A DNA stretch of 64,000 nt, taken from NCBI GenBank assembly GCA_029855935.1, contig JAGSHN010000018.1, positions 32,001 to 96,000 on the forward strand. Direction: 5' to 3'. Positions 1,483 through 56,326 of the stretch are shown piece by piece. Position 1 is the stretch's first letter. Every line of letters starts with the position of its first letter. Source of the DNA: Candidatus Thorarchaeota archaeon (GTDB lineage Archaea > Asgardarchaeota > Thorarchaeia > Thorarchaeales > Thorarchaeaceae). A model generated the notes under the pieces. That model ran no database searches. It saw only the letters and a list, made by a program, of their open reading frames with translations, and was not told the DNA's origin. Made by a program: the position numbers and the translations under genes.

Positions 1483-2472
1483 ATGGCGTCAAGAGTGTTT
1501 GTCACACGAGAGATTCCCGGGACAGGACTGCAGATGATAGGCCAGCATTTCGATGTCTCAGTCTGGCCACACGAGAGACCTCCTACAAGCGAGGAGATCG
1601 TCTCAGCGGCCCAAGGATGCGAGGGCCTCGTCACCCTCCTGTCAGACAACATCGACAGCGGAGTCATCGATGCTCTCCCCAGGCTGAGGGCCATCTCCCA
1701 GTATGCCGTCGGATACGACAACATCGATGTGGAGTATGCGACCAAGAGAGGCATAATCGTAACGAACACTCCGGGGGTGCTGACGGAGACCACAGCAGAC
1801 TTGGCGTGGGCGCTTCTGCTGGCGGCGTCACGCAGAGTCGTGGAGGCTGACAGATACGTCAGAGCCGGAGAGTGGCGAGTGGCGTGGGGGCCCACTCTCC
1901 TTCTGGGGCGGGACGTCTATGGAGCCACCCTAGGCATCGTGGGTATGGGCCGCATCGGGTTTGCCGTGGGAAGGCGCGCAACGGGGTTCAACATGAGAGT
2001 CCTCTACACGTCCCGTTCGGACACCAAGATCACACGCCGTGCGGAGAATGAACTTGGGGCGAAACGTGTGGATCTCGACACGCTGCTGCGCGAGTCTGAC
2101 TTTGTGTCACTGCACGTCCCCCTCACCCCCCGGACAAGACACCTGATAGGTAAGAGGGAGCTCGGCCTGATGAAGCCAACGGCAGTCTTGGTAAACACAT
2201 CTAGGGGGGCCGTCGTCGACGAGAGAGAACTCGCCCGCGCACTCTCTGAGAGAAGAATTCGTGCAGCAGGACTAGATGTCTTTGAGAGAGAGCCGATCCC
2301 GTTGGACAGCCCCCTCCTTGGACTGGACAACGTTGTTATCGTGCCCCACATCGGGAGCGCGAGCGTCGAGACCAGGTCGAAGATGGCACAGATCTGCGCT
2401 GAGAATCTCATCGCGGCGCTCTCGGGTCAGAGACCCAAGTACGCTGTCAATCCTGAGGTCTTCGAGAGATAA
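1483..2472 (+). CDS. gyaR: glyoxylate reductase / D-2-hydroxyacid dehydrogenase
   Basis: [27 protein letters not shown] Rossmann motif, [23 protein letters not shown]. Confidence 0.92.
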
Positions 2473-2630
2473 CTGGTTCCGGTAATTGTACGCGACCGCA
2501 CCATTCTGAGACTGCTCGACCATAGTATGAGGCAGCCGTCTCACCAAGTCTCCGTTGCGCAGCCGGGGAATTGCTATGGTCTACGGATGAGGTGAACTGG
2601 AGCCCACTCCCGACTGCTCAGGAGAGGTGA

Positions 2631-2665
2631 GAGAAAAAGAAAGGGTGTGGGGGACTTTCGTCCCC
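2631..2665 (-). terminator. hairpin plus U-tract after subtilase 1
   Basis: Minus strand GGGGAC-GAAA-GUCCCC followed by UUCUUUUUCUC. Confidence 0.6.
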
Positions 2666-2680
2666 GCTATGCTACCACGC

Positions 2681-5600
2681 CTATCGCTTCTTGATCAGGA
2701 ACAGGATCAAGATGACGACGACACCGACGCCGATACCGCCGAGCAGTCCAATGATCAGCGGATCGATACCCGGTGCGGGTGGCGGTGTAGTCGTGGTGGT
2801 TGTAGTCGTGGTGGTTGTGGTCGTGGTTGTCGGAATCGTGGTGGTTGTCGGCGTGTATCCACCAGCAGTGAAGCTGCTGGAGTACGCCACGTCGGACAGA
2901 CCCATCCAGTAGTCGCCCTGACCCGCAGTCGGGTTGACGGCCGGATCGTTGTCATAGACCCTGACCCTGACCACGTACGTGCTGAGGTGCTCGAACGGGG
3001 TGCTGTCCCAGACGTAGAACGTCTGAGTCAGATTGACGGCCAGCAGCTGGTACGTCTCACCACCGTCCTTCGAGACAGACACCTCGAAGTACAGGTCGTC
3101 ACCTGTGTTCCTGTCGTAGGCGTCCCAGGTGATGTTGACAAGGTTGCCAGTGATATGGGTCTGGACGTTCGACACGTCGGGTGCGAAGAAGTTCGCAAAG
3201 GTCAGTGACGCGTAGTTGATGTCGAACGCGATGTTGGTCTGAGTGAGAGCGCTGATCTGGACGGAGAACGTACCGTTCTTGAGGAACTGGTAGGTGTCGT
3301 AGGTGACACTCCGCCCAGTCTTGACTATGTCAGTACCAACACGAGTGTCGACAGTCAGCTTGTACTGACCAGTTGACAGGTCGTAGTCGAAGATACCGAC
3401 CATTATCGCACCGTCGTGGTCTGCAACGAACGAGCCGTGCTCGGGCTTGTTGCCAGTAGCCATCTGGCTACCGAGCAGGTTGTTCGCGTATGACCACGTG
3501 CTGTTGTCGGAGTCAGCCCACCAGGCCATGATGTCACAGTCACCATTGGTGAAGTCAACGGTCACTCTCACGGTGTCGCCAGCCTTGATGCCCTCGACCC
3601 TCTCCCAGGCAAACTGATCCAGCTGGATTGTGCCCGAGAATGGGTTATAGTTCGAGTCGGGGACGACAAGGTCGCCGATGTGTTGGTAGTAAACACCTGA
3701 CAGGAACGACACGGTGGTCTGTACCACCTCGTACTCAGGCATGTTTGGCAGATTGAACTGTGGGAATGTGGCGTTGACCACAGCGTGGTCACCAACAATG
3801 GTGTCGCCATCCGTTATTGGCACTGGGCTGGTCACGTCGTTGGCCGTGTAGGTGAAGATCAGATCACCCGCGCCACCAGTCAGCTGCTCGTAGACCATGA
3901 CCTCCAGCGTGTAGTTGACCGGCAGCATCACCGTGCCGTTCAGCCGGTTGGGATGCACGAAGATGTAGTAGTAGCCCACCGGACTGGTCATGTCGCTGAG
4001 GTCAGCGATCAGAGCTGTGCTGGTCGGTGTCAAGGCGTCGCTCGTCGCAATGGCCGCGCCCGTGGTGCTAAGGACCTCGACATGCATGTCGTTGCCAGTG
4101 TCAGCCCACTCAACGCGGACACCGAGGTATCCGGCCGTGTCGTACGGGTTGTAGACGACAAAGCTGCGGAAGTCCCAGTCGTCCGGATCGCTGTCCATGC
4201 ATCCGTAGACAGGGCTGTCGTATGGTGTCAGCTCAGCACCGAATCCGTTGACAACAGTGTTGACGTCGGTCACATTGGCGCTGAGGTTGGCCACGACCAT
4301 GTAGCTGTAGGGCAGCCTGAGAGAGTAGCCACCCTTGGCCAAGTTGATGTAGCCCTGGTGGATGCCAGCCTCGGCATCGTTAGGCACTGTCAGCGTGAAG
4401 TTCAGGCTGTTGTCAGTGCCTGGTGCCTGAATGGAGATCTCGGACGATGATACCTCCTCCCAGAAGATCACCGTCACGGTGAAGTTGTGGCCGGTTGCAT
4501 TCAGGTCCTCATCGAACACTGGGTCGTGAATGACCAGTGTCATGTTTCCGCTGAGTGCCGCAGCCAAGCTGGACCCGCTGACTGCAAATGGCATCATGTT
4601 GGTCGCGCTTGGGTCACTTGCGCTGGTGAGCCTGTGCAGCTCATTGCCGTCGGTGCCGTTCCAGAGGTTCGGATATCCGTCCGTGACGTTGTTGTCCTCC
4701 CAGTCATAGAGGAACATCCACGGCTCGGCTCCAGCGACCTCTGCGCTGTCAAATGCCACGCCAATTGTGACATAGCTGTAGGTTCCCATGTCTGTGTCGT
4801 AGACAGATGGCGTCAGCTGGTCACGCAGGTTGTAGAAGCCATAGGCCATGTCACCACTGACGTTTGCGTCAGTGTACCAGAAGGTTGTGTTCTCGAAGGT
4901 GTAGCGCTTTGCCATCTTGTAGTGCGTGGCACTGCTCACCCAGCCAGTACCATCGTCCAGCGTGCTGAAGAAGTCGCCGTAGATCTTCTGATGCACGGTG
5001 ACAGTTGCTCCAGGCCATACCTGGCCGAAGAAGACAGAGCCTTCCCACAGGTTGGTCGGATATGCGACTTCGGAGTTGTTCACAAACACGCCGAGGTAAG
5101 AACTAGGCAACACACCCCAGTAGTCCCACGCGTCCTGCATGAGAGCAGCGTGGTTCGCGAACGAGTCAGTGGAGTATGACACCCAGCCGTTGTTGTTTAC
5201 GGCGAAGTCGATCGCCTTTGCGGCGTTTATCCTTCCGAAGCCCTGTGTTGCAGGATCATAGCCGAGGTCGTCCGCAGTCTGCTGCAGTATCATCTTGGCC
5301 TGTGGTCCGGTGATTCCAGATGCCGCCTCGTAGAGGAGTGCAGCAACACCAGCTGCCACGGGAGCAGCCTGGCTGGTACCCGCGAAGAGGGTGTACTGCA
5401 TGTCATAGCCAGCCGTCTTGTCCCACCACTGACCAGCAGACCAGAACTGCGCGCAGTACGGAGCGTACCACGGGACTGCCGCGTAGCCGGCAAGGCCTGG
5501 TGCAAGCACGTCAGGCTTCACGTAGCCAGACACCAGCGGACCCTTGCTTGTGAAGCTGGCAATACCCTCGTAGGGCTGCGTTGGACCGTAGAGGTACTCC

Positions 5601-7504
5601 AGCCAGTGGCTCGACGTGGACGCACCAATAGTCAGCACTGCAGGTGATGAGCCAGGTGGCCCAATAGTCATGAAGCCGGCACCCTCGTTTCCTGCAGAGA
5701 ACACGTGCAGGATACCAGGATAGCTGCTATCGAGGATTCCTGGCGTGGAGAGTATGGTCCAGGTCATTGACAGATAGTCAAACTCGCTGTACGGCTCCGT
5801 GATCCAACCCCAAGAGTTGGTCACGAGGTCAGACTGGTGATTGCCAGTGTAGTAGAACTCACCGCTTGTCGCGTTGTAGTCGAAACCACAGACCCACAGG
5901 TAGGCACCGTAGTCGTCGCCTCTTGTGAGGGCTCTGGCGGAGATTATGTCCGCATCAGGAGCAATACCTGGCAGAGTGAAGTTCTGACCAGTGTCCTCAT
6001 TCTGGTAGGTCAGCACACCAGCTGACGCCACGTGAGAGGCGGTCGCCGTACCGTGGGTACCGGCATCGAAGTACAGTGAGAGGGCGGTACCGTTCTCGAA
6101 GTGGTAGAACCCGTCAATGTAGGCGGGATAGCCGAAGTCCTGTAGCCAGCCCGGCACGAAGCCAGAGGCAATGGCACCCAAGCTGAAGTCGTCGATACCG
6201 TCACCGTCGAAGTCGTGTGCGACAATCGGGTGGCTCTCGTCATAGATCTCACCGGCCGCGATCTCGTCTGTGAAGTCCCAGTCGAAGGTCGCGATGATGT
6301 GGTATGCATCAATGATGTTGGTGAGATCGTACGACTCGTAGTAGAAACCACCAGTCCAGAACTTGTTCCAGCCGTTGGCGTCGTCCCAGTTGATGACAAC
6401 CGCCCAGTCGTTCGTGCTCGTGTAGTTGAACACGATTGCTGGAGCGAAGAGCTTTGCATATGGGTGGAACCGCTGCTGCATGACCCAGTTGATGTAGTAG
6501 TCACCATTGACTATCGATGGGTCAGGCATCTTCCAGTCGTTCCAGAGATAGTTCTGGATCAGGTTGTCTGCACCCTCGATACCCCAGTAGTAGGCGTAGA
6601 GATAGACGAAACCAACCCTGTGGACGTACGGGGTGTTCGCATCACCATCGCCTATCAGGTACCTCGGGCCAGCCTCACCGCTGTAACCGTAGTTCAGCAG
6701 CGGGTCCCAACCAGTCACATTCAGATAGAGGGCGCTATCCGAACCAGTGTAGGTGAGTAGGTGGTACGGATCTGCCAGCCACTCCGTCGCATTGACAACA
6801 GTACCGTTAGCGATGTAGAATGCCGGTACAACACCGTAGCCTGATGGGTCAAAAGCACCACCAAAGGCATGCTGAAGCTCGGGGTTGCCGAAGTCAGCAC
6901 CAGTGTCGATGTGACCAACCTTGACGCCAGTACCGTCGTAGTTGGTTGCAGGAGCAGTTGTCGCACCGACAACCTCCTTGATCTTGTACATGTCCACACC
7001 GACGCCTGGCTGTGAGGTGTCGCCGGTCATCCTTGCAAGGTCGTCAGCCACATTCAGCTTGAACAGGTCAGCCTCGATTGAGCTGACGCCGTTCACCCTG
7101 GCCAGTGCGTCGAGGGCATCAGTGTTGGGGATGTACACGTTCCAGACCTTGAAGAATCCAAGGTCCGCCTTCCAGTGCACCTCGACAATATCCGCCACTG
7201 CGTCGACATCGGCCCACGGGGTCATGACGACGAGCGCGCGGACGCGGCCATCAGGGCTTGTGACGACCCTGTCGCTTAGCACTCCCGAGTCAATCCAGCT
7301 GGCCAAGGCATTGTCAATCTTGGCCGTATAGCCCGGCTGCGCAACGTTGTCATACCATTGCTGCAGCGTGTCTCGGGCCTCTGGACTGAGCTGAGGAGCG
7401 CTGGCCGGTTCTGCTGTCGTTATGGGAGCAGCTGGAGCCAGCAGCATAGTCAGGCTCAGCGCTGCCATAAGAAACAGAACTGCCGCTGTTCTTATCTTGT
7501 TCAT
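2681..7504 (-). CDS. membrane-anchored S8 subtilase (pyrolysin-like), 1607 aa
   Basis: Signal peptide; triad motifs HIDTG, HGTATA, GTSQAAP; SAGNEG oxyanion Asn; Thr-rich linker, C-terminal TM and KKR. Confidence 0.92.
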   Translation of the reverse strand: MNKIRTAAVLFLMAALSLTMLLAPAAPITTAEPASAPQLSPEARDTLQQWYDNVAQPGYTAKIDNALASWIDSGVLSDRVVTSPDGRVRALVVMTPWADVDAVADIVEVHWKADLGFFKVWNVYIPNTDALDALARVNGVSSIEADLFKLNVADDLARMTGDTSQPGVGVDMYKIKEVVGATTAPATNYDGTGVKVGHIDTGADFGNPELQHAFGGAFDPSGYGVVPAFYIANGTVVNATEWLADPYHLLTYTGSDSALYLNVTGWDPLLNYGYSGEAGPRYLIGDGDANTPYVHRVGFVYLYAYYWGIEGADNLIQNYLWNDWKMPDPSIVNGDYYINWVMQQRFHPYAKLFAPAIVFNYTSTNDWAVVINWDDANGWNKFWTGGFYYESYDLTNIIDAYHIIATFDWDFTDEIAAGEIYDESHPIVAHDFDGDGIDDFSLGAIASGFVPGWLQDFGYPAYIDGFYHFENGTALSLYFDAGTHGTATASHVASAGVLTYQNEDTGQNFTLPGIAPDADIISARALTRGDDYGAYLWVCGFDYNATSGEFYYTGNHQSDLVTNSWGWITEPYSEFDYLSMTWTILSTPGILDSSYPGILHVFSAGNEGAGFMTIGPPGSSPAVLTIGASTSSHWLEYLYGPTQPYEGIASFTSKGPLVSGYVKPDVLAPGLAGYAAVPWYAPYCAQFWSAGQWWDKTAGYDMQYTLFAGTSQAAPVAAGVAALLYEAASGITGPQAKMILQQTADDLGYDPATQGFGRINAAKAIDFAVNNNGWVSYSTDSFANHAALMQDAWDYWGVLPSSYLGVFVNNSEVAYPTNLWEGSVFFGQVWPGATVTVHQKIYGDFFSTLDDGTGWVSSATHYKMAKRYTFENTTFWYTDANVSGDMAYGFYNLRDQLTPSVYDTDMGTYSYVTIGVAFDSAEVAGAEPWMFLYDWEDNNVTDGYPNLWNGTDGNELHRLTSASDPSATNMMPFAVSGSSLAAALSGNMTLVIHDPVFDEDLNATGHNFTVTVIFWEEVSSSEISIQAPGTDNSLNFTLTVPNDAEAGIHQGYINLAKGGYSLRLPYSYMVVANLSANVTDVNTVVNGFGAELTPYDSPVYGCMDSDPDDWDFRSFVVYNPYDTAGYLGVRVEWADTGNDMHVEVLSTTGAAIATSDALTPTSTALIADLSDMTSPVGYYYIFVHPNRLNGTVMLPVNYTLEVMVYEQLTGGAGDLIFTYTANDVTSPVPITDGDTIVGDHAVVNATFPQFNLPNMPEYEVVQTTVSFLSGVYYQHIGDLVVPDSNYNPFSGTIQLDQFAWERVEGIKAGDTVRVTVDFTNGDCDIMAWWADSDNSTWSYANNLLGSQMATGNKPEHGSFVADHDGAIMVGIFDYDLSTGQYKLTVDTRVGTDIVKTGRSVTYDTYQFLKNGTFSVQISALTQTNIAFDINYASLTFANFFAPDVSNVQTHITGNLVNITWDAYDRNTGDDLYFEVSVSKDGGETYQLLAVNLTQTFYVWDSTPFEHLSTYVVRVRVYDNDPAVNPTAGQGDYWMGLSDVAYSSSFTAGGYTPTTTTIPTTTTTTTTTTTTTTTPPPAPGIDPLIIGLLGGIGVGVVVILILFLIKKR
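2783..2855 (-). repeat. poly-Thr linker codon repeat in subtilase 1
   Basis: ACN runs encoding TPTTTTIPTTTT...TPPP. Confidence 0.85.
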
Positions 7505-46077: not shown

Positions 46078-47316
46078 TCACCTGAGCCAGTCGAAGGCCT
46101 CGTTCCACGTGGCACTAGAACCGGAGAACGGATTGAGGTAGAGAGTTCTGAAGAATTCTGCAGTGCGGTTGGTCTCAACCGCTCGCTCCCACGTCGGCAG
46201 AACGTACTCTGTTCGCCCGAAGTAGTACGTGTACACGTAGGGAGCCCAGAAATTGACCCTCCCATCCTCGGTCTCTGGAGAGATGAAACGTAGTATGGCG
46301 TTGGCTCGCCTCTCATCGACCAGCCCGGCCTCCATCACATATCGACGGGCCTCGCTGGTCGTCCAACCCTCGACGTTCAGCATATAGGCGGCATTGATGC
46401 GCACGGCCTGTCGTAGCTCGCGAAGAGCATTGACAATGACAGAGCGCCAGCCCGTCTCCTTTACTCCGAGAAAGTCCCTCACAGTGTCGGCAACACCCTC
46501 GGAGATCACGCAGCGCCCCGTGTGAAGCGGGACAATGCTCAGTTCCGTGTAGCCGTGCTCGCGATAGGCGCGCTCGCGCCAGACGTTCGAGACGTGATGA
46601 CCATATTCGTGGTACACGACGTTTGTCAATGAGTCCCGATTGAAGGAGCGGTCGATGTTGAACTGGTTGATTGAGCGATAGTCCCCTTGATAGTAGTTGT
46701 AGCCGCCCCACGCTCGGTCCTGAACGGCCTCGTACTTCACACCGTTGTCAGTGACAGACGCGCCTAGACAATTGAACACACGTTCCGCAAAGAGGCGACC
46801 AATCTCCTTGGCCCGGGGCTGAAGAGTCTCCTCAATGACACGCTTAAGTTCAGCACCCTCTACTCGCCCCGAGTCCTCGAACGAGACAACCGACTCGAAT
46901 AGCTGAGAGTCGTCAGTCACGTCAAGCGCCTCTGCAACCCTCTCCCGGAGGCCCTCGACAACGGTATCGGGAAAGCGCCGTGCCTCGACTCCAAAGAAAC
47001 CCATGACCAGCGTCTCATATGAGACCGACCTGCCATCAAGCCACTCCACTACCTTTGCCAGAGACTCGGCCTCAGACGCTACATACTCGCCTCTCAGGGG
47101 CGGCTCCGTCAGCTCCTCGCGGGCTGTGTCAGCCACAGCCATCAGATATGCGTGGAGTTCTTCGCCCTCACGGTCCTTCCTCTGGCGATCTGGATGTAGC
47201 TCATCCGGCCCGAAGTACGCATCGACAACGCTCACTCCTGTGAGCCTCTCACTGAGATGACCCACCTCGCCGCAGAGCCTGACGAACATCTCACCAGGGT
47301 CGAACAATCCGTTCAT
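46078..47316 (-). CDS. DUF885-like zincin metalloprotease
   Basis: HEYGHH (HExxH), downstream ISEG.A, YVYTYYFG. Confidence 0.7.
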   Translation of the reverse strand: MNGLFDPGEMFVRLCGEVGHLSERLTGVSVVDAYFGPDELHPDRQRKDREGEELHAYLMAVADTAREELTEPPLRGEYVASEAESLAKVVEWLDGRSVSYETLVMGFFGVEARRFPDTVVEGLRERVAEALDVTDDSQLFESVVSFEDSGRVEGAELKRVIEETLQPRAKEIGRLFAERVFNCLGASVTDNGVKYEAVQDRAWGGYNYYQGDYRSINQFNIDRSFNRDSLTNVVYHEYGHHVSNVWRERAYREHGYTELSIVPLHTGRCVISEGVADTVRDFLGVKETGWRSVIVNALRELRQAVRINAAYMLNVEGWTTSEARRYVMEAGLVDERRANAILRFISPETEDGRVNFWAPYVYTYYFGRTEYVLPTWERAVETNRTAEFFRTLYLNPFSGSSATWNEAFDWLR

Positions 47317-47422: not shown

Positions 47423-49591
47423 TCACCGGAATCCACCAGACACGCAGGCACTATGACATGCACTGTGACAGGCACTATGACAGACACACGCGGAGTGGCA
47501 CGCACTATGACATGCACTGTGACAGGCATCGTGTGACACGCAGGCGCTATGACAGGCGTCATGGGAGACGCAGCGACTTGTCGTCTGGAGTATCTGCTGG
47601 AATGGTGCCGTTATGGTCTGCGCCACTCCGTTCAGGATAGAGCCGATGGTGTTCGTCACGTCCGAGATGACCTGCCCCACGGTGCCGGCCACTTCACCGA
47701 CAACCTGTGTGGTACCTGATGCTCCTGACCTCACAGCCTCGGAGACACCCCTGAACCAGTCTGGGACTGCCGTCGTGCTGACCGGCGTCTTGTCAGATCC
47801 GAGCACGTCAGTGATGCGCGAGTCGTGACGAGGATCCATGTAGAGCCAGTACCACGCCCACGTGTCGTGTGTCGAGCCATCAAAATAGTAGGATACCTTC
47901 TGCTCGGGCGCAGGCTGCGACTCGAGCTCCTGCCAGGCTGACTCGATCATCTCCTCATTGTGATTCTTGGTGGCCTCAAAGTCGGCGTTCCAGACCTTTT
48001 CCTGCACCTTGTCTGCGATGTCCTCGATTAGCTCATCGACCTTTGCAGGATCGAGCTCACCGTCGACTATCGCCTCAAGGAACTTCTCCTCGTAGTACGT
48101 CAGGTCCTCGAAGCGCAGGCCAGTGACGGCCAGCTTCAGCGGGTCTGTGGAGATGATACGGACAGCCCCCTTTCGAACACACGACATCAGTATCATAGTG
48201 ACGAGTCGGTCTCGTGTCAGATTCTGGAACACTGCAGCCTCAACAGGGTCGAGCTCTGCCACCACGCCGGGTTGGCCAAAGGTCTGAATCTCTATCGTTG
48301 GCGACTCATACGCAAAGGTGGTTTCGTCCGCCGACCACACTGCGCCATAACCACGATGAGCGGAGAGAGCATAGAGGACAGCTCCCAACAGGAGGACCCC
48401 AAGAAAGACCCAGACACCCCACGGCACTGAGGCCAATGATGATCCCACACCAGGTGGAACCCACCCGGTCTGCGGCGGTGAGACGAAGATCTCCACACTG
48501 AATGACAGCTGCTGATTATCCGAACCGGTCACCAGGAACGTGATCGTCCTCGTGGTCTCAGCCTCATTGGCGATGAGCGTGTAGTCCAGCTGAAAGCCCT
48601 CTCCACCGTCCAGAGTACCAAGGTATCTGGTCGGTGCCCCCGAGACAAGGGTCACGTTCTCTGGTAGCGACATCGTGGCCACTACGTCATAGATGGGTGC
48701 GTCACCGACGTTATAGACAAGGACATGGAGATCAAAGGACGATGAGGCGACGACATTGAGGTAGGATGGTGCATCATACGCAAGGAGGCCGGGAGCCAAA
48801 TACGCCTCGTAGAAGCTCCAGTTCGTGTAGTGGAATACCACAAGATGCTCGTAGGCATAGACCGGCGAGGCCTCCAGACTCACACTGAAGTTGCGTGGCT
48901 GTCCCGGTGGCCCGGTGGTCGGATACGCAAGTAAGTTCACCTCATCATAGGAACGATAGTTGCCCGAGTTGTCCTCTATTCTCTGACGCGAGTCCACGAC
49001 ATACCCTGCATACTCCGCACCCTCCGGGGTGATGCCACCTTCTCCCGTGATGTAGGAGGAGTTTATCAGGATTGGATAGACGACACGAATCGTCTCTGTG
49101 CCGACATCCTGCTCCCACTGAACGGGCGCCCAATGGAACACTCCATACTTGACACCCTCTTCGGTTTCCGTGAGCTCTACGACCCTGTTCAACGAATAGT
49201 ATCCGAACACGACGAGGACCGTCTGCCCGGCCTGAGCCCGCGGGGTCCAATCCAGCCCATATCCATCTGAGAGAGTCGTAATCACCAAGTCGTATCTCTC
49301 ACCAGCGATCTCGACGTAGGCACGACTACGGTCGGGCTGAGAGGTCTCCTGAATGCCTCTGAGGTCAAAGCCCCCAAGCGACCCAGAGACCACGTCAAAG
49401 GTCATCCAGTAGGTGACGTTCAGTCGCCCATTCGGTTGTACTATGACCTCCACGTCAATCCTGTCAATGTCCACCACGGGGCTCTGCGATGGCGTGGACG
49501 CAGCCGCAGCTGGTGCGATCAGAAGACCGACGAGGGGTGAACCCAAGACGAGGAACAGCAGGCATCTTGCAGCGATAGTGGCACGACGCAA
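47423..49591 (-). CDS. DUF2207-like single-pass membrane protein with C-terminal Cys/His repeat tail
   Basis: Signal peptide, V.VQPNG.L.V N-domain, CARDB-like domain, one TM, LDPVEAA/LTYYE region, (CHSA)n tail. Confidence 0.85.
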   Translation of the reverse strand: MRRATIAARCLLFLVLGSPLVGLLIAPAAAASTPSQSPVVDIDRIDVEVIVQPNGRLNVTYWMTFDVVSGSLGGFDLRGIQETSQPDRSRAYVEIAGERYDLVITTLSDGYGLDWTPRAQAGQTVLVVFGYYSLNRVVELTETEEGVKYGVFHWAPVQWEQDVGTETIRVVYPILINSSYITGEGGITPEGAEYAGYVVDSRQRIEDNSGNYRSYDEVNLLAYPTTGPPGQPRNFSVSLEASPVYAYEHLVVFHYTNWSFYEAYLAPGLLAYDAPSYLNVVASSSFDLHVLVYNVGDAPIYDVVATMSLPENVTLVSGAPTRYLGTLDGGEGFQLDYTLIANEAETTRTITFLVTGSDNQQLSFSVEIFVSPPQTGWVPPGVGSSLASVPWGVWVFLGVLLLGAVLYALSAHRGYGAVWSADETTFAYESPTIEIQTFGQPGVVAELDPVEAAVFQNLTRDRLVTMILMSCVRKGAVRIISTDPLKLAVTGLRFEDLTYYEEKFLEAIVDGELDPAKVDELIEDIADKVQEKVWNADFEATKNHNEEMIESAWQELESQPAPEQKVSYYFDGSTHDTWAWYWLYMDPRHDSRITDVLGSDKTPVSTTAVPDWFRGVSEAVRSGASGTTQVVGEVAGTVGQVISDVTNTIGSILNGVAQTITAPFQQILQTTSRCVSHDACHSACVSHDACHSACHSACHSACVCHSACHSACHSACVSGGFR
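47426..47572 (-). repeat. 12-nt coding repeat encoding CVSHDA/CHSA units
   Basis: 7x CHSA and 2x CVSHDA with synonymous codon variation. Confidence 0.95.
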
Positions 49592-49594
49592 GTC

Positions 49595-49921
49595 TCACTT
49601 TCCCTCCGAACTCAACTTCTTGGCCGTCGACCGCAGCAACGACTCTGCAGCCTCCATATGGCCGAGTGCGGACTCGATGGAGTCATGGGTCTCGTACCAG
49701 TCGATAGAGCCAATCGTGGTGCGAACAGCCTGAAGACTGTCAGCGCCGTTCATCAGCATCGTAGACAGGGGTACGTGCAGCTGCCCAACAACATCGTGGC
49801 GCTTGAGGTATTCGACAAGGACGGACTCAACGAAGTCGTCAACTGTCGTGTGGTTCTCACTTCGACTCACGAGCCTCTCCAAGAGCTCGTAGACCACCTC
49901 TGAGATCTCCACCGAGACCAT
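49595..49921 (-). CDS. ribbon-helix-helix-like small protein
   Basis: VSVEISEVVYELLERL...TVDDFVESVL N-terminus. Confidence 0.6.
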   Translation of the reverse strand: MVSVEISEVVYELLERLVSRSENHTTVDDFVESVLVEYLKRHDVVGQLHVPLSTMLMNGADSLQAVRTTIGSIDWYETHDSIESALGHMEAAESLLRSTAKKLSSEGK

Positions 49922-49937
49922 TTCGGGTCAGGCTCTC

Positions 49938-50333
49938 CTATTCACCTCTCCGGGCCCTGAGGACCTCAGCCTGTGCCAGCGTCAGGTTCGAGAGGTCAGC
50001 CTTGGCCTCCGCCCACTCGTTCAGCGACGGAAACTCCTGAATCATACCGCTCCAGACAAGGTGATAGACACGCTTGAGGATCTTGGTGGGGTCGCCATCC
50101 GTACCGACGTACTCGAAGAACGCCTTGATCACTGCTGGCGACTGCTCCGAGATGTTCTGTGGTACCTCGGTACCGAATCCCGCAAATGCCACCTCCATCT
50201 CCCTGAGAACATCCATCCGCTCCCTTATCCCTGCTGCAATGACGGGGAGGTCGATGTCAAAGGCACTGAAGCGCATCACCAGTTTCTTGTCGGTTATTGT
50301 GCCGTATGGTAGAACAATCTCACGCGAACTCAT
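49938..50333 (-). CDS. hypothetical protein
   Basis: Start reassigned to MSSREIV after GGAGAG; first gene of the leftward operon. Confidence 0.7.
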   Translation of the reverse strand: MSSREIVLPYGTITDKKLVMRFSAFDIDLPVIAAGIRERMDVLREMEVAFAGFGTEVPQNISEQSPAVIKAFFEYVGTDGDPTKILKRVYHLVWSGMIQEFPSLNEWAEAKADLSNLTLAQAEVLRARRGE

Positions 50334-50467
50334 CGCACTTCTCTCCAGAGGTCTTGTGCGAATGAGAGCCCATGAGCAGATAAGCATTTCATCTGTCAGT
50401 GTGGTGGCGATGCCAATCAGTTTATCCGCCCTGTGGCGATTGAGTACAGGGACACGGAGACGAGGCA

Positions 50468-51886
50468 ATGAGGCTGCCCGCGTACAACTATGCGATTGAG
50501 GACCTCGAATGGGTACCACATTTCATCTCTGAGGTGAGGGACTACTTCTTCGTACGACCACACGACAACCTGCTGATACTCCGACCCAACAAGGTCATGC
50601 ATCTCAATCAGACAGCAGTGGAGATGCTGAAAAGGCTGCTTGAGGGGCAGAGCCCTGAGCAGGTCGTAGAGGCATTTGTGAAGAGAGGGGTCCACAGGCA
50701 GACAGTGATGAACGACCTCGCAGCGTTCGTCGAAGACCTGCGAGAGATGGTCTCGGGAAACCAGAACATCTACTCCTACCGCACGGCACGGATCGTCCCC
50801 TTCGGAAAGAGCGAGATCAAGTATCCCGTTCTGAGCGAGATAGCTCTGACGTACAGATGCAACAACAGATGCAAGTTCTGCTATGCTTATTCCCCCTATC
50901 GCGAGTCGGGCGAGATGACGACGGATGAGGTCAAGCGGGTGATTGACATCATCGCCGATGATGCTCACGTCCCCAGCCTGTCCTTCACTGGTGGCGAGCC
51001 GACTCTCAGAGACGACCTGTTCGAGCTGATCCGTTACGGACGCCAGAAGGGTCTGAGGATGAACCTCATCACCAATGGTCGACGGTGTGCTGACCCCGAC
51101 TTTGTCCAGCGGCTCGTGGAGGCAGGACTGAACAGTGCACAGGTCTCGGTCGAGGGGCCTGATGCAGAAACCCACGATGGTATAGTCGGTGTGAGAGGCG
51201 CCTTCGAGCAGACCGTAAAGGGGGTGAAGAACCTCAGGGCGACTGACATCTACACGCACTGCAACACCACAATCTGCAGGCCCAATGTCGACCGACTGGA
51301 GGACCTTGTCGACTTCTACAAGGACGAGCTGGGTCTCTCATACTTCAGTATGAATATGGTCATCTACACGGGGACCGCCGCAAAGCTGCGCGATGAACTG
51401 CAGATAAGATACTCGGAGATAGGTGACATCGTGCGAAGAGTACGCAGGCGTGCCAAGAGGAGGGGCATCGAGTTTGTGTGGTACGCCCCGACACCCGTGT
51501 GCCTCTTCAATCCCATTGCCAACGGTCTGGGAGCCAAGATGTGCGCGGCCTGCGATGGTCTGCTGTCCGTCGACGCAGAGGGGGGCCTCCTGCCGTGCTC
51601 CAGCTTCAGCGAGCCAGTTGGCAACCTGCTCAGAGAGGGCTTCGAGAAGGTCTGGTACAGTCGTGCGGCGAAGTTCTGGAGGAACAAGGAATACGCGCCA
51701 GAGGGCTGCAGGAGATGTGATATGTTCGACTACTGCATGGGTGCCTGCCCGCTATACTGGGATGTACAGGGCTATGACGAGATCAAGGACCAGTGGCCAA
51801 GGCGCAGCGCAGCAGCCTCAAAGATCGATGAGTGGAGGCTGACCCTGCGGAGGAGGATAAAGGGGCATCAGCACGGCATTACGTAG
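50468..51886 (+). CDS. radical SAM/SPASM protein with N-terminal PqqD/RRE-like domain
   Basis: CNNRCKFC, FTGGEP, ITNG; SPASM CAAC...LPC...GNL...CRRCDMFDYCMGAC; N-terminal LNQTAVEML...F.EDL. Confidence 0.92.
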   Translation: MRLPAYNYAIEDLEWVPHFISEVRDYFFVRPHDNLLILRPNKVMHLNQTAVEMLKRLLEGQSPEQVVEAFVKRGVHRQTVMNDLAAFVEDLREMVSGNQNIYSYRTARIVPFGKSEIKYPVLSEIALTYRCNNRCKFCYAYSPYRESGEMTTDEVKRVIDIIADDAHVPSLSFTGGEPTLRDDLFELIRYGRQKGLRMNLITNGRRCADPDFVQRLVEAGLNSAQVSVEGPDAETHDGIVGVRGAFEQTVKGVKNLRATDIYTHCNTTICRPNVDRLEDLVDFYKDELGLSYFSMNMVIYTGTAAKLRDELQIRYSEIGDIVRRVRRRAKRRGIEFVWYAPTPVCLFNPIANGLGAKMCAACDGLLSVDAEGGLLPCSSFSEPVGNLLREGFEKVWYSRAAKFWRNKEYAPEGCRRCDMFDYCMGACPLYWDVQGYDEIKDQWPRRSAAASKIDEWRLTLRRRIKGHQHGIT

Positions 51887-51927: not shown

Positions 51928-53061
51928 ATGCATATCGACGACCTTGTCACTCCGTCTGTCCTTGTGGACCGTCCCAGGCTCCTGCGCAACATCGAGCGGA
52001 TGGCAAGAAGGACCCGTGAGCTTGGTGTCGCTCTCCGGCCGCACGTCAAGACCCACAAGTGCATAGAGATAGCGAGGATGCAGGGGAGTGCTGGCATCAG
52101 AGGCATCACCGTGTCAACCCTGTTCGAGGCCCGGGTCTTCGCAGATGCGGGATTCGATGACATCACCTATGCTTTCCCCATCGCGCCTGACAAGTTCAGT
52201 GTTCCAGGTCAGCTCGCTGAACGCGTGAGTCTCAACGTCATCCTCGACAATCCTGTCACCGTTGATGCACTATCCGAATACTGTGAGAGCAATGACCTCA
52301 TAATGAATGTCCTGCTCAAGGTCGATGTGGGCTACCATCGTGCAGGAGTTCTGTGGGACGATCCTGCCGCGATACATCTTGTTGAGAGAATTGCGCGTGC
52401 TGGTGGTCTGGAGTTCAGAGGAATCCTCACTCACGAGGGCCACGTATACGACGCCTCTACACCAGATGAGATCAGAGAGATCGAGATGACCTCGCAGAGG
52501 AGGATGGTTGACCTTGCGGAACGACTGGCTCGTCACGATGAGCGACTGCGCCCTGAGGTGGTGTCTGTCGGCTCCACTCCGGGCTGTTCGTTGATGACCG
52601 AGGTTGTTGACGGGATAACCGAGGTCCGCCCGGGGAACTACGTCTTCTATGACTACGAGCAGGTCGCTCTCGGCTCCTGCACGATAGATGACTGCGCATT
52701 GCTGGTGCTTGCATCGGTCGTCGGAACGTATGGGGACAGGCTCATCATTGATGCTGGAGCCACCACACTCTCGGTGGACGCGGGACCAGTACATCTCGAA
52801 CCAGACTGCGGGTTCGGAAAGATTGTGAGCAACGGGGTTCACCGCTCGATCGATGATGCATTGGTGATTGCGGGTCTGTCACAAGAGCACGGAAAGATCA
52901 GAGTGAGAGAGAAGGGGGCCTCAGCAAGATATCGGGTGGGGGACCGCCTCTGGATTGTTCCCAATCACTCGTGCCTGACCGCCAACCTGTCGGACTGGTA
53001 CGTCGTCGTCGATGGTGATAGAGTAGTCGACAGGTGGGGAATTCATCGCGGCCGGCTGTGA
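51928..53061 (+). CDS. PLP-dependent D-threonine aldolase/D-serine dehydratase family (fold III)
   Basis: RPHVKTHK, HRAG, GSTP, EVRPGNY, SQEHG, PNHSC. Confidence 0.88.
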   Translation: MHIDDLVTPSVLVDRPRLLRNIERMARRTRELGVALRPHVKTHKCIEIARMQGSAGIRGITVSTLFEARVFADAGFDDITYAFPIAPDKFSVPGQLAERVSLNVILDNPVTVDALSEYCESNDLIMNVLLKVDVGYHRAGVLWDDPAAIHLVERIARAGGLEFRGILTHEGHVYDASTPDEIREIEMTSQRRMVDLAERLARHDERLRPEVVSVGSTPGCSLMTEVVDGITEVRPGNYVFYDYEQVALGSCTIDDCALLVLASVVGTYGDRLIIDAGATTLSVDAGPVHLEPDCGFGKIVSNGVHRSIDDALVIAGLSQEHGKIRVREKGASARYRVGDRLWIVPNHSCLTANLSDWYVVVDGDRVVDRWGIHRGRL

Positions 53062-53078: not shown

Positions 53079-53792
53079 TCAGTCGACACGATTGACTATC
53101 AGATGTCCGCAGTAGGGACACTCCTCCTCTTCGCCAGGGAGGACAGGGGCCTCGAGACGTCCTCCGCACTGAGGACACTTCGTGATGGCACGAGGCAGCT
53201 CGGCAACAGCCTCTGCGGTGTACACGACCCTCGAGTTCCGGTCAATCGTCCCACGGAACTTTCCAGCACGAGAGAGTTCCTCCAGTGCCTCCACGATCTG
53301 CTCGTCCGTCGCATTGGTCACACGGGATATCTGATCGAACGTCATCCTCCGCTGAGCATAGAGAAGATGAAGCAGACTCTCCTGCAGGCTCACTGCACCG
53401 GGACTGACAATCTCACCATGTGCTGCGTCGAGATACACGAGCGGGAACTTCCGGCGTGCCAGAGCCTCAGCCACATCTGCAACGTCCGAGACGCTGACGC
53501 CCAACTCCCGAGCGGCGGCCTCCAACCCTATGCGTCCCTCTCTCTGCACGAGCGCGATGACTCTGCTGGACACATCACCAATTCTTGCCGCGCGCGTTCC
53601 CTTGATCAGTAGCCACAGTCCCACAGCGAGCTCGGGCAGGCCAAGGATGGCCCATGATATCACCACCGCGGAGATAAACGTCGTGGACGATCCGGCTGCC
53701 ACCTTCAGGGCAGACTGGTAGACGAGCACTGACATGAATGCTGAGACAGCAATCAGCACGATTCCAAGGAACTGGAGTAGGCGTGCATTCAT
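53079..53792 (-). CDS. membrane protein with tandem winged-helix (PCI-like) domains and Zn ribbon
   Basis: 2 TM, two wHTH-like units (GKFRGTID), CPQCG...CPYCG. Confidence 0.75.
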   Translation of the reverse strand: MNARLLQFLGIVLIAVSAFMSVLVYQSALKVAAGSSTTFISAVVISWAILGLPELAVGLWLLIKGTRAARIGDVSSRVIALVQREGRIGLEAAARELGVSVSDVADVAEALARRKFPLVYLDAAHGEIVSPGAVSLQESLLHLLYAQRRMTFDQISRVTNATDEQIVEALEELSRAGKFRGTIDRNSRVVYTAEAVAELPRAITKCPQCGGRLEAPVLPGEEEECPYCGHLIVNRVD

Positions 53793-54338: not shown

Positions 54339-55832
54339 ATGCAAGAAGAAGGAACTGATCTCTCCACGGACTTCGTGCGATTCCATATCACGAATCTTGG
54401 ACCATTGAGGAAAGCTACGATTGTCCTGCGCCCATTGTCGGTTTTCATTGGTCCAAACAATGCTGGAAAGTCGTATGTGGCCACAATCATCCACGCGCTT
54501 GGCACTTCGTTTCTCTCGGCGGAATTCCCTTGGAGGGCAGTCTTTTCTTCCGATGACTACGTAGTAGATAAGAAGAAACGTCTTGATGCGAAGTTGCTGG
54601 AGAAAATTGTTCAAGCAGTGGGCTCCAATCTCGGAGATCTGGGCGTTGTCGGAGGACTCGTAGAGGATCGCACGGCGAAGATTGTCCGCTGGACACTTGC
54701 GGGACTAGAGCGCTCAATATCCGGTGAGATAGTGCGTTCATTCTCCTGTAGGCTCAGCGACATCGTTAGATTCGGCGCCAACAAGATGAGGATAGTAGTG
54801 GAGAACAGGTATTCGGACTACGAAGTCACTGTATCAAAGACTGGCGAGGTCAGCCTCAGAGTTCGCGACATTCACTTGCCGATCAAGAGAGCAGACTCTG
54901 GCATTCCCTACATACCATCAATCAATCGTGAAGTCATTGCAGGCTGGATCTCACACCTTTTGACGGCAAGCAAACCTGAGCAAGCGGCTCGAGCCATTGC
55001 CGATGTGGCTGTTGTCCTGACAACGCTGGGCATACTCTATCCCCTCGTCGGAGTAACAAACAGCCTGTACCTTCCAGCAGCAAGAGGCGGTTCTGTCCAG
55101 ACCTATCGCTCACTTGCAGCTGAGTATGTTCTTCAGCTTCCATTTGCCCTCTCCGAGCCCCAGTCAAGGCCACCCACCCTGAGCAAGACGATGGCTTTGC
55201 TCTTCGCAAAGATGATTAACATGCCCGATGAGAGAGGCCCATTGGCCGAGATTGCTGAGGAGTATGAGGCTAGAACGACAGGAGGACACATTGAAATAGT
55301 ACAAGACTCAAAGCATAAACTTCCACGTCTAGAGTTCAGATATGCCGGGCATTCAATGGGACTTCAGAGGGTCTCATCCTCGATATCAGAACTGGCTCCG
55401 CTGTATTTGTATCTAAAGTATTATGTCACACCGAAGTCAATGTTGACAATCGAGGAGCCAGAGGCCCATCTTCATCCGGAGAACCAGCTGATAGTTGCAA
55501 AACTGATTGCCCGCCTAGTCAACGAGGGAGTTGTCCTGCTAGTCACGACACATAGCGACTATCTGCTAAATCAGCTGAGCAACTGTATTGGTGCATCAAG
55601 ACTCACATCCGAACAAAAACAAGCACTTGGCATTCTAGACAGCGAAACTTTGCCATCTGACAAGGTGGCCATATATCTATTCGAAACAGTTGGTGATGGA
55701 GAATTCACAACACGACAACTATGCATAGACTGGGAAGGTATCCCGGATGATGAGTTCTCAAAGGTATATGAGCAACTATATGAACAGTCGGTATTGATAG
55801 ATACTGCACTCTCTCGCCCTGGTGACAGGTGA
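54339..55832 (+). CDS. ABC-type (AAA_15/AAA_21-like) ATPase
   Basis: GPNNAGKS, LPAARG, SSSISE, IEEPEAHLHP, TTHSDY. Confidence 0.9.
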   Translation: MQEEGTDLSTDFVRFHITNLGPLRKATIVLRPLSVFIGPNNAGKSYVATIIHALGTSFLSAEFPWRAVFSSDDYVVDKKKRLDAKLLEKIVQAVGSNLGDLGVVGGLVEDRTAKIVRWTLAGLERSISGEIVRSFSCRLSDIVRFGANKMRIVVENRYSDYEVTVSKTGEVSLRVRDIHLPIKRADSGIPYIPSINREVIAGWISHLLTASKPEQAARAIADVAVVLTTLGILYPLVGVTNSLYLPAARGGSVQTYRSLAAEYVLQLPFALSEPQSRPPTLSKTMALLFAKMINMPDERGPLAEIAEEYEARTTGGHIEIVQDSKHKLPRLEFRYAGHSMGLQRVSSSISELAPLYLYLKYYVTPKSMLTIEEPEAHLHPENQLIVAKLIARLVNEGVVLLVTTHSDYLLNQLSNCIGASRLTSEQKQALGILDSETLPSDKVAIYLFETVGDGEFTTRQLCIDWEGIPDDEFSKVYEQLYEQSVLIDTALSRPGDR

Positions 55833-56326
55833 GCCATATGAGCGTGGTTACCTGCATCAGGAAAGAGTATGCCAACTATGTATATCGATGCAGGGAGAGA
55901 GGAAGCAGGGTCGATACTACTGGTATTGAATGTGTTGTACTCTGGGGCGATGCGATTGAGAGAGATTTCATTGGGAATGCCATGCTTCGTAAGAGCTGTG
56001 ATTGCATCATCATATCCGAATGGAAGGAGGATGTTATAGTCCTTTTTGTTGAACTAAAGAGGGGAACTGTCAAGGCGGACGATTGCATCGTCAAGATGCA
56101 GACCTGCTACGAACACGCCACGAATATTCTTCAGCACTGCTCAATTCGGCCGACTGGCTGGAATCCAATCTTTCTCGTTGTTCATAGACGTATGAAGACA
56201 CACGAGATGGCTCAGCTGAGATCGAAACGAATGAGATGCGGCGGAAAGAGATATCCAATATGGTCGCGGCCGAGCCCATTGAAATTACGGGAGCTTGTGG
56301 AGAGATGGCATCAATTCGTCCAATGA
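55829..56326 (+). CDS. putative PD-(D/E)xK nuclease partner
   Basis: SCDCIII...FVELK; GTGA overlap with the ATPase stop. Confidence 0.65.
   Translation: MSHMSVVTCIRKEYANYVYRCRERGSRVDTTGIECVVLWGDAIERDFIGNAMLRKSCDCIIISEWKEDVIVLFVELKRGTVKADDCIVKMQTCYEHATNILQHCSIRPTGWNPIFLVVHRRMKTHEMAQLRSKRMRCGGKRYPIWSRPSPLKLRELVERWHQFVQ

Follow-up and report, generated by a model that had tools for sequence, protein, structure and literature searches.

We describe a pair of genes on a 64,000-nt stretch of DNA (the window, whose numbering is used throughout) from contig JAGSHN010000018.1 of Candidatus Thorarchaeota archaeon (GCA_029855935.1). One of them (50468..51886, plus strand) encodes a 472-aa radical S-adenosylmethionine (SAM) enzyme that combines a SPASM domain with a recognition element (RRE) for peptides that are ribosomally synthesised and then modified after translation (RiPPs). 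The other (47423..49591, minus strand) encodes a membrane protein of 722 aa with a single transmembrane pass, which resembles the DUF2207 class in fold and ends in a tail of Cys/His repeats, and its homologues adjoin the enzyme gene in Asgard archaea and in bacteria. As judged from comparative genomics, the two probably make up a two-component protein-modification system in which the enzyme would modify the tail and the tail would stay on the membrane protein. The system is real, widespread and uncharacterised. A preliminary description of the window had already named the tail as the likely substrate, and comparative genomics supports that proposal.

The tail, which is the proposed substrate, comprises residues 674–722 (47426..47572, minus strand) and reads CVSHDA-CHSA-CVSHDA-(CHSA)3-CV-(CHSA)3-CVSGGFR, exactly the grammar first reported for it; 11 Cys and 9 His fall within the final 49–50 residues. 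The motif is found once only in the window's genome and is preceded by a short conserved junction, T-S-R/K-C. The period-12 DNA repeat that underlies it is imperfect (matches of only 83–86%) and the repeat units use differing synonymous codons, so the tail is not a fresh product of DNA slippage. Compared between 15 genera of Thorarchaeota, tail identity is 98.5% in amino acids against 40% at third codon positions, and all 49 codon columns of the tail vary, 46 of them synonymously only; protein identity is 66% over the 51 codons directly upstream and about 50% in the rest of the protein. Judged by these substitution patterns, every tail residue and the number of repeats are under strong purifying constraint, and the tail is not drifting low-complexity sequence.

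A survey seeded with the tail and blind to the enzyme covered one genome per species for 185,579 species, using a back-translated (C-H-x-A)3-C pattern. At least 120 stretches matched, of which 80 loci were listed, and the counts that follow are among the matches listed. Approximately 64 of the 80 are true C-terminal tails, the other 16 being chance matches in GC-rich frames. Of the ~64 tails, 51 have an enzyme gene on the same strand no more than 300 bp downstream, its product 39–51% identical to that of the window, and three more have one within ~1.1 kb, while none of the 16 chance matches has the enzyme beside it. The tails span more than 15 bacterial phyla as well as Thorarchaeota, the phyla including Chloroflexota, Planctomycetota, Spirochaetota, Myxococcota, Acidobacteriota, Omnitrophota, Gemmatimonadota, Kiritimatiellota, Pseudomonadota, Bacillota and Thermodesulfobacteriota; one carrier, Desulfobulbus alkaliphilus DSM 24258 (locus L160, with the two genes at 2175–3887 and 3977–5320), is in culture. 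For five loci without an enzyme in the block examined, each genome holds exactly one orthologue. Among the exceptions, the enzyme gene is adjacent but cut by the block end in L135 and 3 kb away in L152, and L093 is a second tail paralogue. The complete tail-bearing open reading frames (ORFs) all encode proteins of ~500–1170 aa, and no free peptide form of the tail was seen at these loci. Two database homologues that were looked up separately have neighbourhoods of the same kind, in which Radical_SAM and SPASM are among the precomputed Pfam assignments.

The converse survey was seeded with the enzyme and covered 400 Asgard genomes, of which 141 carry the enzyme clade at a threshold of E ≤ 1e-45. 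Within Thorarchaeota, where the enzyme orthologue is 72–82% identical across genera, the arrangement of enzyme and tail protein is kept in all 17 contigs of sufficient length. This conservation alone is weak evidence, since the flanking genes dsd377, p237, up412 and M29 are likewise syntenic within Thorarchaeota. More decisive are the distant Asgard families, in which the enzyme is only 31–47% identical and directly adjoins a membrane protein of 440–930 aa, often with overlapping genes. Over the whole Asgard survey, the neighbour is such a protein and is tailed in at least 11 families (f1, f2, f5, f6, f9, f21, f22, f25, f26, f28 and f29). The gene order varies between lineages, with the tail gene first, the enzyme gene first or, as in the window, the two divergent, so the linkage has been kept through rearrangements. 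Both genes are jointly missing from at least 13 Thorarchaeota genomes, and the discordant Thorarchaeota cases examined all fall at contig ends or N-gaps; one genome that seemed to have the tail gene without the enzyme (G384) was dropped as an exception, which is explained by a scaffold gap of 100 N that interrupts its tail gene.

These distributions bear on whether the adjacency could be inherited synteny without function and the tail an unconstrained low-complexity region. The syntenic flanking genes of Thorarchaeota would fit such an account. It is nonetheless hardly credible, as the linkage survives three gene orders in archaea and bacteria, the chance matches are devoid of the enzyme, and the tail is conserved while synonymous sites are saturated. 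The earlier expectation that enzyme orthologues would be found linked to Cys-tailed proteins is thus borne out by the Thorarchaeota contigs, the Asgard families and the tail-seeded loci alike.

The tails are of two types, (CHxA)n and (CA)n, both with a terminal GG-x-[RHW]. Examples of the first, as (CHxA)n-CVSGGH, are found in the Asgard genomes G176, G172, G133 and G041, while families f2, f5, f9, f21 and f29 have a Gly-rich stretch followed by (CA)n-GGGR. Only the alternation of Ala and Cys and a terminal C-[V/A]-[S/G]-G-G-x are common to both. Hybrid tails in Promethearchaeota (locus L058 of genome G179, and proteins P0054 and P0070), in which CHxA repeats are followed by CACACACA-GGGW in one protein, link the two types. 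A different repeat, (ACHW)n, is seen at the block edge in a metagenome-assembled genome (MAG) of Acidimicrobiales (L126), where the gene is cut off, and may be another tail variant. In family f12 (L073, L075 and L076) the tail-protein homologues end at the contig edge exactly where the tail is expected, which leaves their tails unreadable; the repeat may break assemblies, so that tails would be under-counted in MAGs.

The tail types are mirrored in the enzyme. In a tree of 61 enzyme sequences, all 36 CHxA-linked enzymes lie on one side of a branch with a support of 100, and all CA-linked or unlinked enzymes lie on the other. For the Asgard rows the split involves no circularity, as similarity of the enzyme, and not the tail, decided which of them were included. 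Inside the CHxA side, the enzyme of the window groups with enzymes of Chloroflexota, Myxococcota and Sumerlaeota, and the tails of this sub-clade have repeats broken by a one-residue phase shift and a terminal F or FR; a large sister clade has unbroken repeats and a terminal CVSGG-[A/S/G]-[H/R]. The relatives nearest to the Thorarchaeota pair in both enzyme and tail grammar are thus found in Anaerolineae, Myxococcota and Sumerlaeota (e.g., the Chloroflexota loci L081, L089, L091 and L145), a pattern that suggests inter-domain transfer of the pair, in one direction or the other, between bacteria and Thorarchaeota.

It is also important to consider whether the tail might work unmodified, as a metal- or Fe-S-binding, docking or electron/sulfur-relay site, with the enzyme recruited to the membrane by the tail protein to act on another substrate. 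At their i,i+4 spacing, the eleven Cys and nine His would all point to one side of a helix, an arrangement known from Cys-lined copper storage proteins, and SPASM enzymes such as Tes, whose model scores 77.9 bits against the enzyme, act on membrane lipids. This account seems quite unlikely, however, given that tails of the CA type, with no His and another period, are served by the same enzyme clade, so that the conserved element is the pairing of enzyme and tail rather than the geometry of a metal site. In addition, the enzyme subclades follow the tail grammar, the enzyme carries a peptide-recognition PqqD domain, and a clustering of all adjoining ORFs over ~110 loci yielded no other conserved candidate substrate.

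The enzyme, which is single-copy in the window's genome, has the features of a complete peptide-modifying enzyme of its class, with Pfam Radical_SAM, PqqD, SPASM and Fer4_12 all above cut-off. The N-terminal PqqD-like RRE (aa 37–93; 50576..50746, plus strand) matches PF05402 with an E-value of 3.6e-7 and 30.8 bits relative to a gathering cut-off of 23.4; the profile detects it individually in 23 of 52 clade members, its N-terminal domain can be aligned in all 52, and N47 is invariant. The radical SAM core (aa 127–283; 50846..51316, plus strand; PF04055, E 1.1e-27) holds C131-x3-C135-x2-C138, the CxxxCxxC motif. Downstream of it, the SPASM domain with seven conserved Cys (51500..51751, plus strand) is matched by PF13186 over aa 359–418, a profile found in 52 of 52 clade members. 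The alignment of 61 homologues keeps C131, C135 and C138 as well as the SPASM residues Cys 345, 359, 377, 414, 417, 423 and 427 in at least 90% of the sequences, which marks it as a full SPASM enzyme that carries two auxiliary clusters. The CxxxCxxC motif, full SPASM Cys set and PqqD/RRE-like N-terminus of the preliminary description are therefore confirmed by profile matches and Cys conservation, the RRE by its own profile score.

The enzyme reaches no equivalog cut-off in NCBIfam. Its best scores are with AhbD (158 bits, cut-off 500), NirJ2 (143/500), PqqE (124/381), StsB (113/625) and PapB (90.1/340); the ACGX enzyme model TIGR04340 scores 87.4/400 and the CXXX-repeat maturase TIGR04115 21.7/350. 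The solved structures nearest by sequence are those of PqqE, SkfB (1.3e-16), CteB (5wgg, 8.8e-10) and SuiB (5v1q, 1.7e-6). That AhbD, NirJ2, AhbC and NirJ, which are radical SAM enzymes that modify tetrapyrroles, give the best NCBIfam scores raises the question of whether the enzyme attaches a cofactor to the tail, or builds one there, be it of the tetrapyrrole type or another. C-H-S-A-C-H could then be viewed as CX3CH, in overlapping units like variant heme c motifs. Such covalent cofactor attachment is very improbable: the tetrapyrrole scores are far below their cut-offs (158 vs. 500 bits) and near the PqqE score (124), CA tails lack any His, heme c is attached outside the cytoplasm, on the opposite side to that predicted for the tail, and AhbD and NirJ are without an RRE.

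The location of the tail is the next element in the argument that the enzyme modifies it. An AlphaFold2 model of the 722-aa protein, built from a 62-row alignment, has a mean predicted local distance difference test (pLDDT) of 80.8. It begins with an RR-hydrophobic signal or anchor segment (aa 1–32; 49496..49591, all features of this protein being on the minus strand), followed by an extracytoplasmic beta-sandwich domain (aa 33–390, of which aa 39–371 in the model; 48422..49495; pLDDT >90) and a transmembrane helix (aa 391–414; 48350..48421; hydropathy peak 2.32), which is a helix in the model as well. A disordered linker leads from there to a cytoplasmic helical domain (aa 445–655; 47627..48259), which is confident over aa 445–620 in the full model and reaches a pLDDT of ~90–97 when modelled alone. 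These two domains, outside and inside the membrane, are both conserved and well folded. The tail region has a pLDDT below 50 (aa 656–715), and this predicted disorder would leave the tail accessible.

The cytoplasmic domain resembles GOLPH3/GPP34 and DUF2207_C. Against GOLPH3 (3kn1) VIA gives a Z of 7.0, in a range that the tool itself calls common, over 157 aligned residues at a root-mean-square deviation of 4.3, and Vps74 gives a Z of 5.4. In the ESM Atlas the template modelling (TM) score is 0.52–0.54 to PF20990 (DUF2207_C) clusters and 0.66–0.69 to “putative DUF2207” clusters, with no sequence match. The Pfam model of the DUF2207 N-terminus (PF09972) scores 21.6 bits, below its cut-off of 24.4, although it is recorded for a few homologues in precomputed data. 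The DUF2207-like label of the preliminary description thus relates mainly to fold rather than sequence, and we term the protein a remote member of the DUF2207 class. Neither the tail protein of the window nor those of bacteria have anything over cut-off in NCBIfam or Pfam, most of the bacterial ones having no Pfam match at all, and the named database homologues are all annotated “hypothetical protein”. The ectodomain found only generic matches in Foldseek (ribophorin I/Ost1 and other Ig-like stacks). A relationship to oligosaccharyltransferase was considered and set aside: ribophorin I/Ost1 and TRAP-beta are the top matches, but at TM scores of 0.2–0.28 (0.47–0.50 when normalised to the 158–161 aa of TRAP-beta), and many unrelated Ig-like stacks do equally well.

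Several features place the tail on the same side of the membrane as the oxygen-sensitive, SAM-dependent enzyme. The RR-segment is combined with a single transmembrane helix; the ectodomain has no Cys and five N-x-S/T sequons, with one sequon in the C-terminal part; across 60 homologues the mean count of Lys and Arg is 3.3 after the helix relative to 1.7 before it, with the bias in that direction in 45 of 60; and GOLPH3-type domains, like the one that lies between the helix and the tail, are cytosolic. The predicted topology therefore supports a tail that faces the cytoplasm, as had been suggested earlier.

With this in mind, the simplest reading of one enzyme and one tail core, a peptide-recognition domain and a disordered cytoplasmic tail is that the enzyme modifies the tail unit by unit. 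The cytoplasmic enzyme would dock on the membrane protein through its PqqD-like domain, and 5'-deoxyadenosyl radical chemistry, aided by the two auxiliary Fe-S clusters, would modify successive tail units. A Cys sulfur might in this way be joined to a carbon of a neighbouring residue in thioethers of the sactionine or ranthionine type, and the modified tail would remain on the membrane protein. The features common to both tail types point to chemistry centred on Cys, with Ala or Gly as a possible partner; His and Ser would be type-specific additions, and Ala is the sole thioether partner candidate that CHxA and CA tails share. Thioether formation specifically is a tentative assignment, made by analogy, that may well be wrong. 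We infer that the tail is the substrate and that it is retained on the protein, and the kind of bond is likewise inferred. More speculative, and doubtful, is the idea of a hitherto undescribed modification whose product would be a poly-cross-linked tail, attached for good and perhaps acting as a redox or metal cofactor derived from the protein, in a system widespread among Asgard archaea and anaerobic bacteria.

A number of points weigh against modification of the tail by this enzyme. The two genes are unlinked in the bacterial MAGs L108 and L140, and they lie on different contigs in the Asgard families f12 and f30. Among family models, the enzyme scores best with those of tetrapyrrole enzymes (AhbD, NirJ2) and of PqqE rather than with any thioether synthase. 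The RRE-dependent maturases that we know of act on short leader-bearing peptides, and it is puzzling that an RRE should read a 700-aa membrane protein. Cys and His at i,i+4 would also suit metal binding without modification, and one chemistry has to fit tails of period 2 (CA) and period 4 (CHxA) alike. Lastly, no RNA run was listed as containing the locus, the sole holder being a hydrothermal-vent metagenome that is likely its source, a result that we count here although it is silent on expression either way.

The layout of the locus bears on a further alternative. The enzyme gene faces a run of three tightly packed minus-strand genes, encoding p131, p108 and the 722-aa tail protein, across a divergent intergenic region of 134 bp (50334..50467), as in the preliminary description. 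In agreement with that description, no free precursor peptide was found at the locus and no plausible peptide-coding ORF in the intergenic region. A fourth gene in line, 106 bp downstream of the tail gene and possibly on the same transcript, encodes a 412-aa soluble protein with a zinc-peptidase-type HEYGH (HExxH) motif (46078..47316, minus strand), and its membership in the system is uncertain. It has no Pfam or NCBIfam family match and no sequence relative in the PDB; an ESM Atlas feature match to a “putative DUF885” cluster (score 0.96) makes it possibly DUF885-like, as a lead only.

The proximity of a putative peptidase could mean that the large protein is a membrane-tethered RiPP precursor, serving as leader and anchor for a modified tail that is cleaved and released or exported. 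The conserved T-S-R/K-C junction before the tail would suit such cleavage, and RiPP cores are as a rule set free once they have been modified. We regard this as unlikely, given that the HExxH gene adjoins the pair in Thorarchaeota only, by synteny, and is not beside it elsewhere, that neighbour-gene clustering over the ~110 loci found no conserved protease or exporter, and that folded, conserved ectodomains and cytoplasmic domains are unlike a disposable leader. Retention of the modified tail on the membrane protein is therefore the reading that we carry forward.

The two small proteins encoded ahead of the tail gene have no Pfam or NCBIfam family match. The first gene of the run, as read from its ORF, encodes p131 (49938..50333, minus strand), a soluble 131-aa protein without Cys, whose start was placed at Met63 of a 193-aa ORF, where the homologue alignments begin. 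It is 63–75% identical in all Thorarchaeota loci, it obtained sub-threshold matches only (0.86) in an ESM Atlas feature search, and in three loci of bacteria (L100, L134 and L139) a homologue immediately precedes the tail gene. The second, p108, is a small acidic protein (49595..49921, minus strand) found in only some Thorarchaeota loci, being present by tblastn in 6 of 19 related loci.

On the other side of the pair, a gene for a D-serine dehydratase-like protein (Ala_racemase_N and D-ser_dehydrat; 51928–53061, plus strand) starts 41 bp downstream of the enzyme gene and keeps this place in most Thorarchaeota loci, not elsewhere. Beyond it lies the gene for p237 (53079–53792, minus strand), a 237-aa protein with two transmembrane helices, winged-helix-like stretches and a C-terminal Zn ribbon that is syntenic with the enzyme in Thorarchaeota. 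Between 54001 and 56400 the GC content drops from ~0.57 to 0.49, and a 497-aa ORF (54339–55832) overlaps a 165-aa ORF (55829–56326); this segment may be an inserted element.

Outside Thorarchaeota, the accessory genes vary. A membrane protein of ~300 aa is encoded directly after the enzyme gene in 28 bacterial loci (L082, L097 [6042–7085], L103, L158, L160 and 23 others); it belongs to no Pfam or NCBIfam family, has a conserved G-Y-x-T motif near its C-terminus and probably belongs to the bacterial system as a third component. Its gene comes after the tail gene in L140, even with the enzyme gene elsewhere. In 22 loci, all with enzymes from the CA side of the tree, the enzyme gene is followed by one for a class I SAM methyltransferase; 14 of these loci have an adjacent CA tail. 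It is directly downstream in the CA-type Asgard loci L041, L050–L057, L059, L061–L063 and L066 (e.g., L062:5206–5997) and has the same place, downstream of the enzyme gene, in the f12 and f30 loci without an adjacent tail gene. In 16 loci a small protein with a transmembrane segment and a Zn ribbon is encoded upstream of the tail gene. The architecture of p237 is similar to that of the small proteins in CA-type loci, but a profile hidden Markov model of the latter had no match to p237 even at E 10, and homology is not supported.

RRE-containing radical SAM/SPASM enzymes are a mainstay of RiPP discovery and are assumed to act on short disposable precursor peptides, while the same architecture is tied here to the last 30–50 residues of a large folded membrane protein. 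If the tail is indeed modified and retained, RiPP chemistry would also serve permanent protein modification, and would reach beyond small secreted peptides to a membrane protein with a structural or signalling role. This would further give a first functional handle on the poorly understood DUF2207 membrane proteins, and Cys-Ala or Cys-His-x-Ala units would define a radical SAM reaction that is new.

Among known systems, the nearest curated concept is the CXXX-repeat system proposed by Haft (TIGR04117, “Cys-Xaa-Xaa-Xaa repeat radical SAM target protein”; Pfam PF27846, tSAM_targ_Cxxx_rpt; maturase TIGR04115), whose targets likewise carry C-terminal Cys at four-residue spacing and are predicted to be acted on by a neighbouring radical SAM/SPASM enzyme. 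Bacterial tails match the CXXX models faintly over their last ~40 residues (14 bits vs. 50 for TIGR04117, and a match rated “weak” for PF27846), and the tail of the window itself has no match to TIGR04117. The differences are that TIGR04117 describes a small protein of ~98 residues, whereas the repeat here ends a membrane protein of 500–1170 aa, and that the enzyme is not the CXXX maturase (21.7 bits vs. 350). The preliminary description spoke of a new system, which stands insofar as no curated family is reached over cut-off and full-text searches found no paper on this enzyme–tail pair, but needs to be qualified by the existence of this predicted target family for small proteins. The ACGX system (TIGR04340) offers a similar comparison, with a four-residue Ala-Cys-x-x repeat beside an archaeal radical SAM/SPASM enzyme, itself a prediction only. 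The ACGX-repeat targets of methanogens are short, tandem-encoded peptides, and the TIGR04340 model is far from its cut-off on the enzyme of the window (87.4 bits vs. 400).

Relative to the sactipeptide and ranthipeptide synthases (SkfB, AlbA, CteB/SCIFF and PapB/freyrasin), the enzyme has a PqqD-like RRE, a CxxxCxxC core and a seven-Cys SPASM domain in the same order, and its candidate target is Cys-rich and repetitive, as their substrates are. That target is, however, a large membrane protein rather than a leader–core peptide, the loci have no conserved protease or exporter, and the PapB and StsB models are below cut-off. The Cx3D/E acceptor motif of PapB (NF047865), an enzyme that the preliminary description had cited, is not conserved in the family; as Cx3D it has just two copies in the tail of Thorarchaeota, and most of the other tails lack it. 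The membrane protein itself is like DUF2207 proteins (PF09972 and PF20990) in having a beta-rich ectodomain, a transmembrane helix, a DUF2207_C-like cytoplasmic domain and a low-complexity tail; to our knowledge, ordinary DUF2207 proteins have Gly/Ser-rich tails and no radical SAM partner.

Finally, protein-modifying SPASM enzymes offer a precedent for a modification that stays in place. In quinohemoprotein amine dehydrogenase, QhpD cross-links the QhpC subunit through thioethers, and both QhpD and the anaerobic sulfatase-maturating enzyme (anSME) modify Cys or Ser on a protein that retains the modification for its function. Their substrates are soluble enzyme subunits with few sites, in contrast to the 7–11 tandem units at the C-terminus of a membrane protein described here, and the QhpD and anSME families fall outside the 25 best NCBIfam matches of the enzyme. 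Since such protein-modifying enzymes exist, the principle is not new; what would be new is the substrate class and the chemistry of the repeat.

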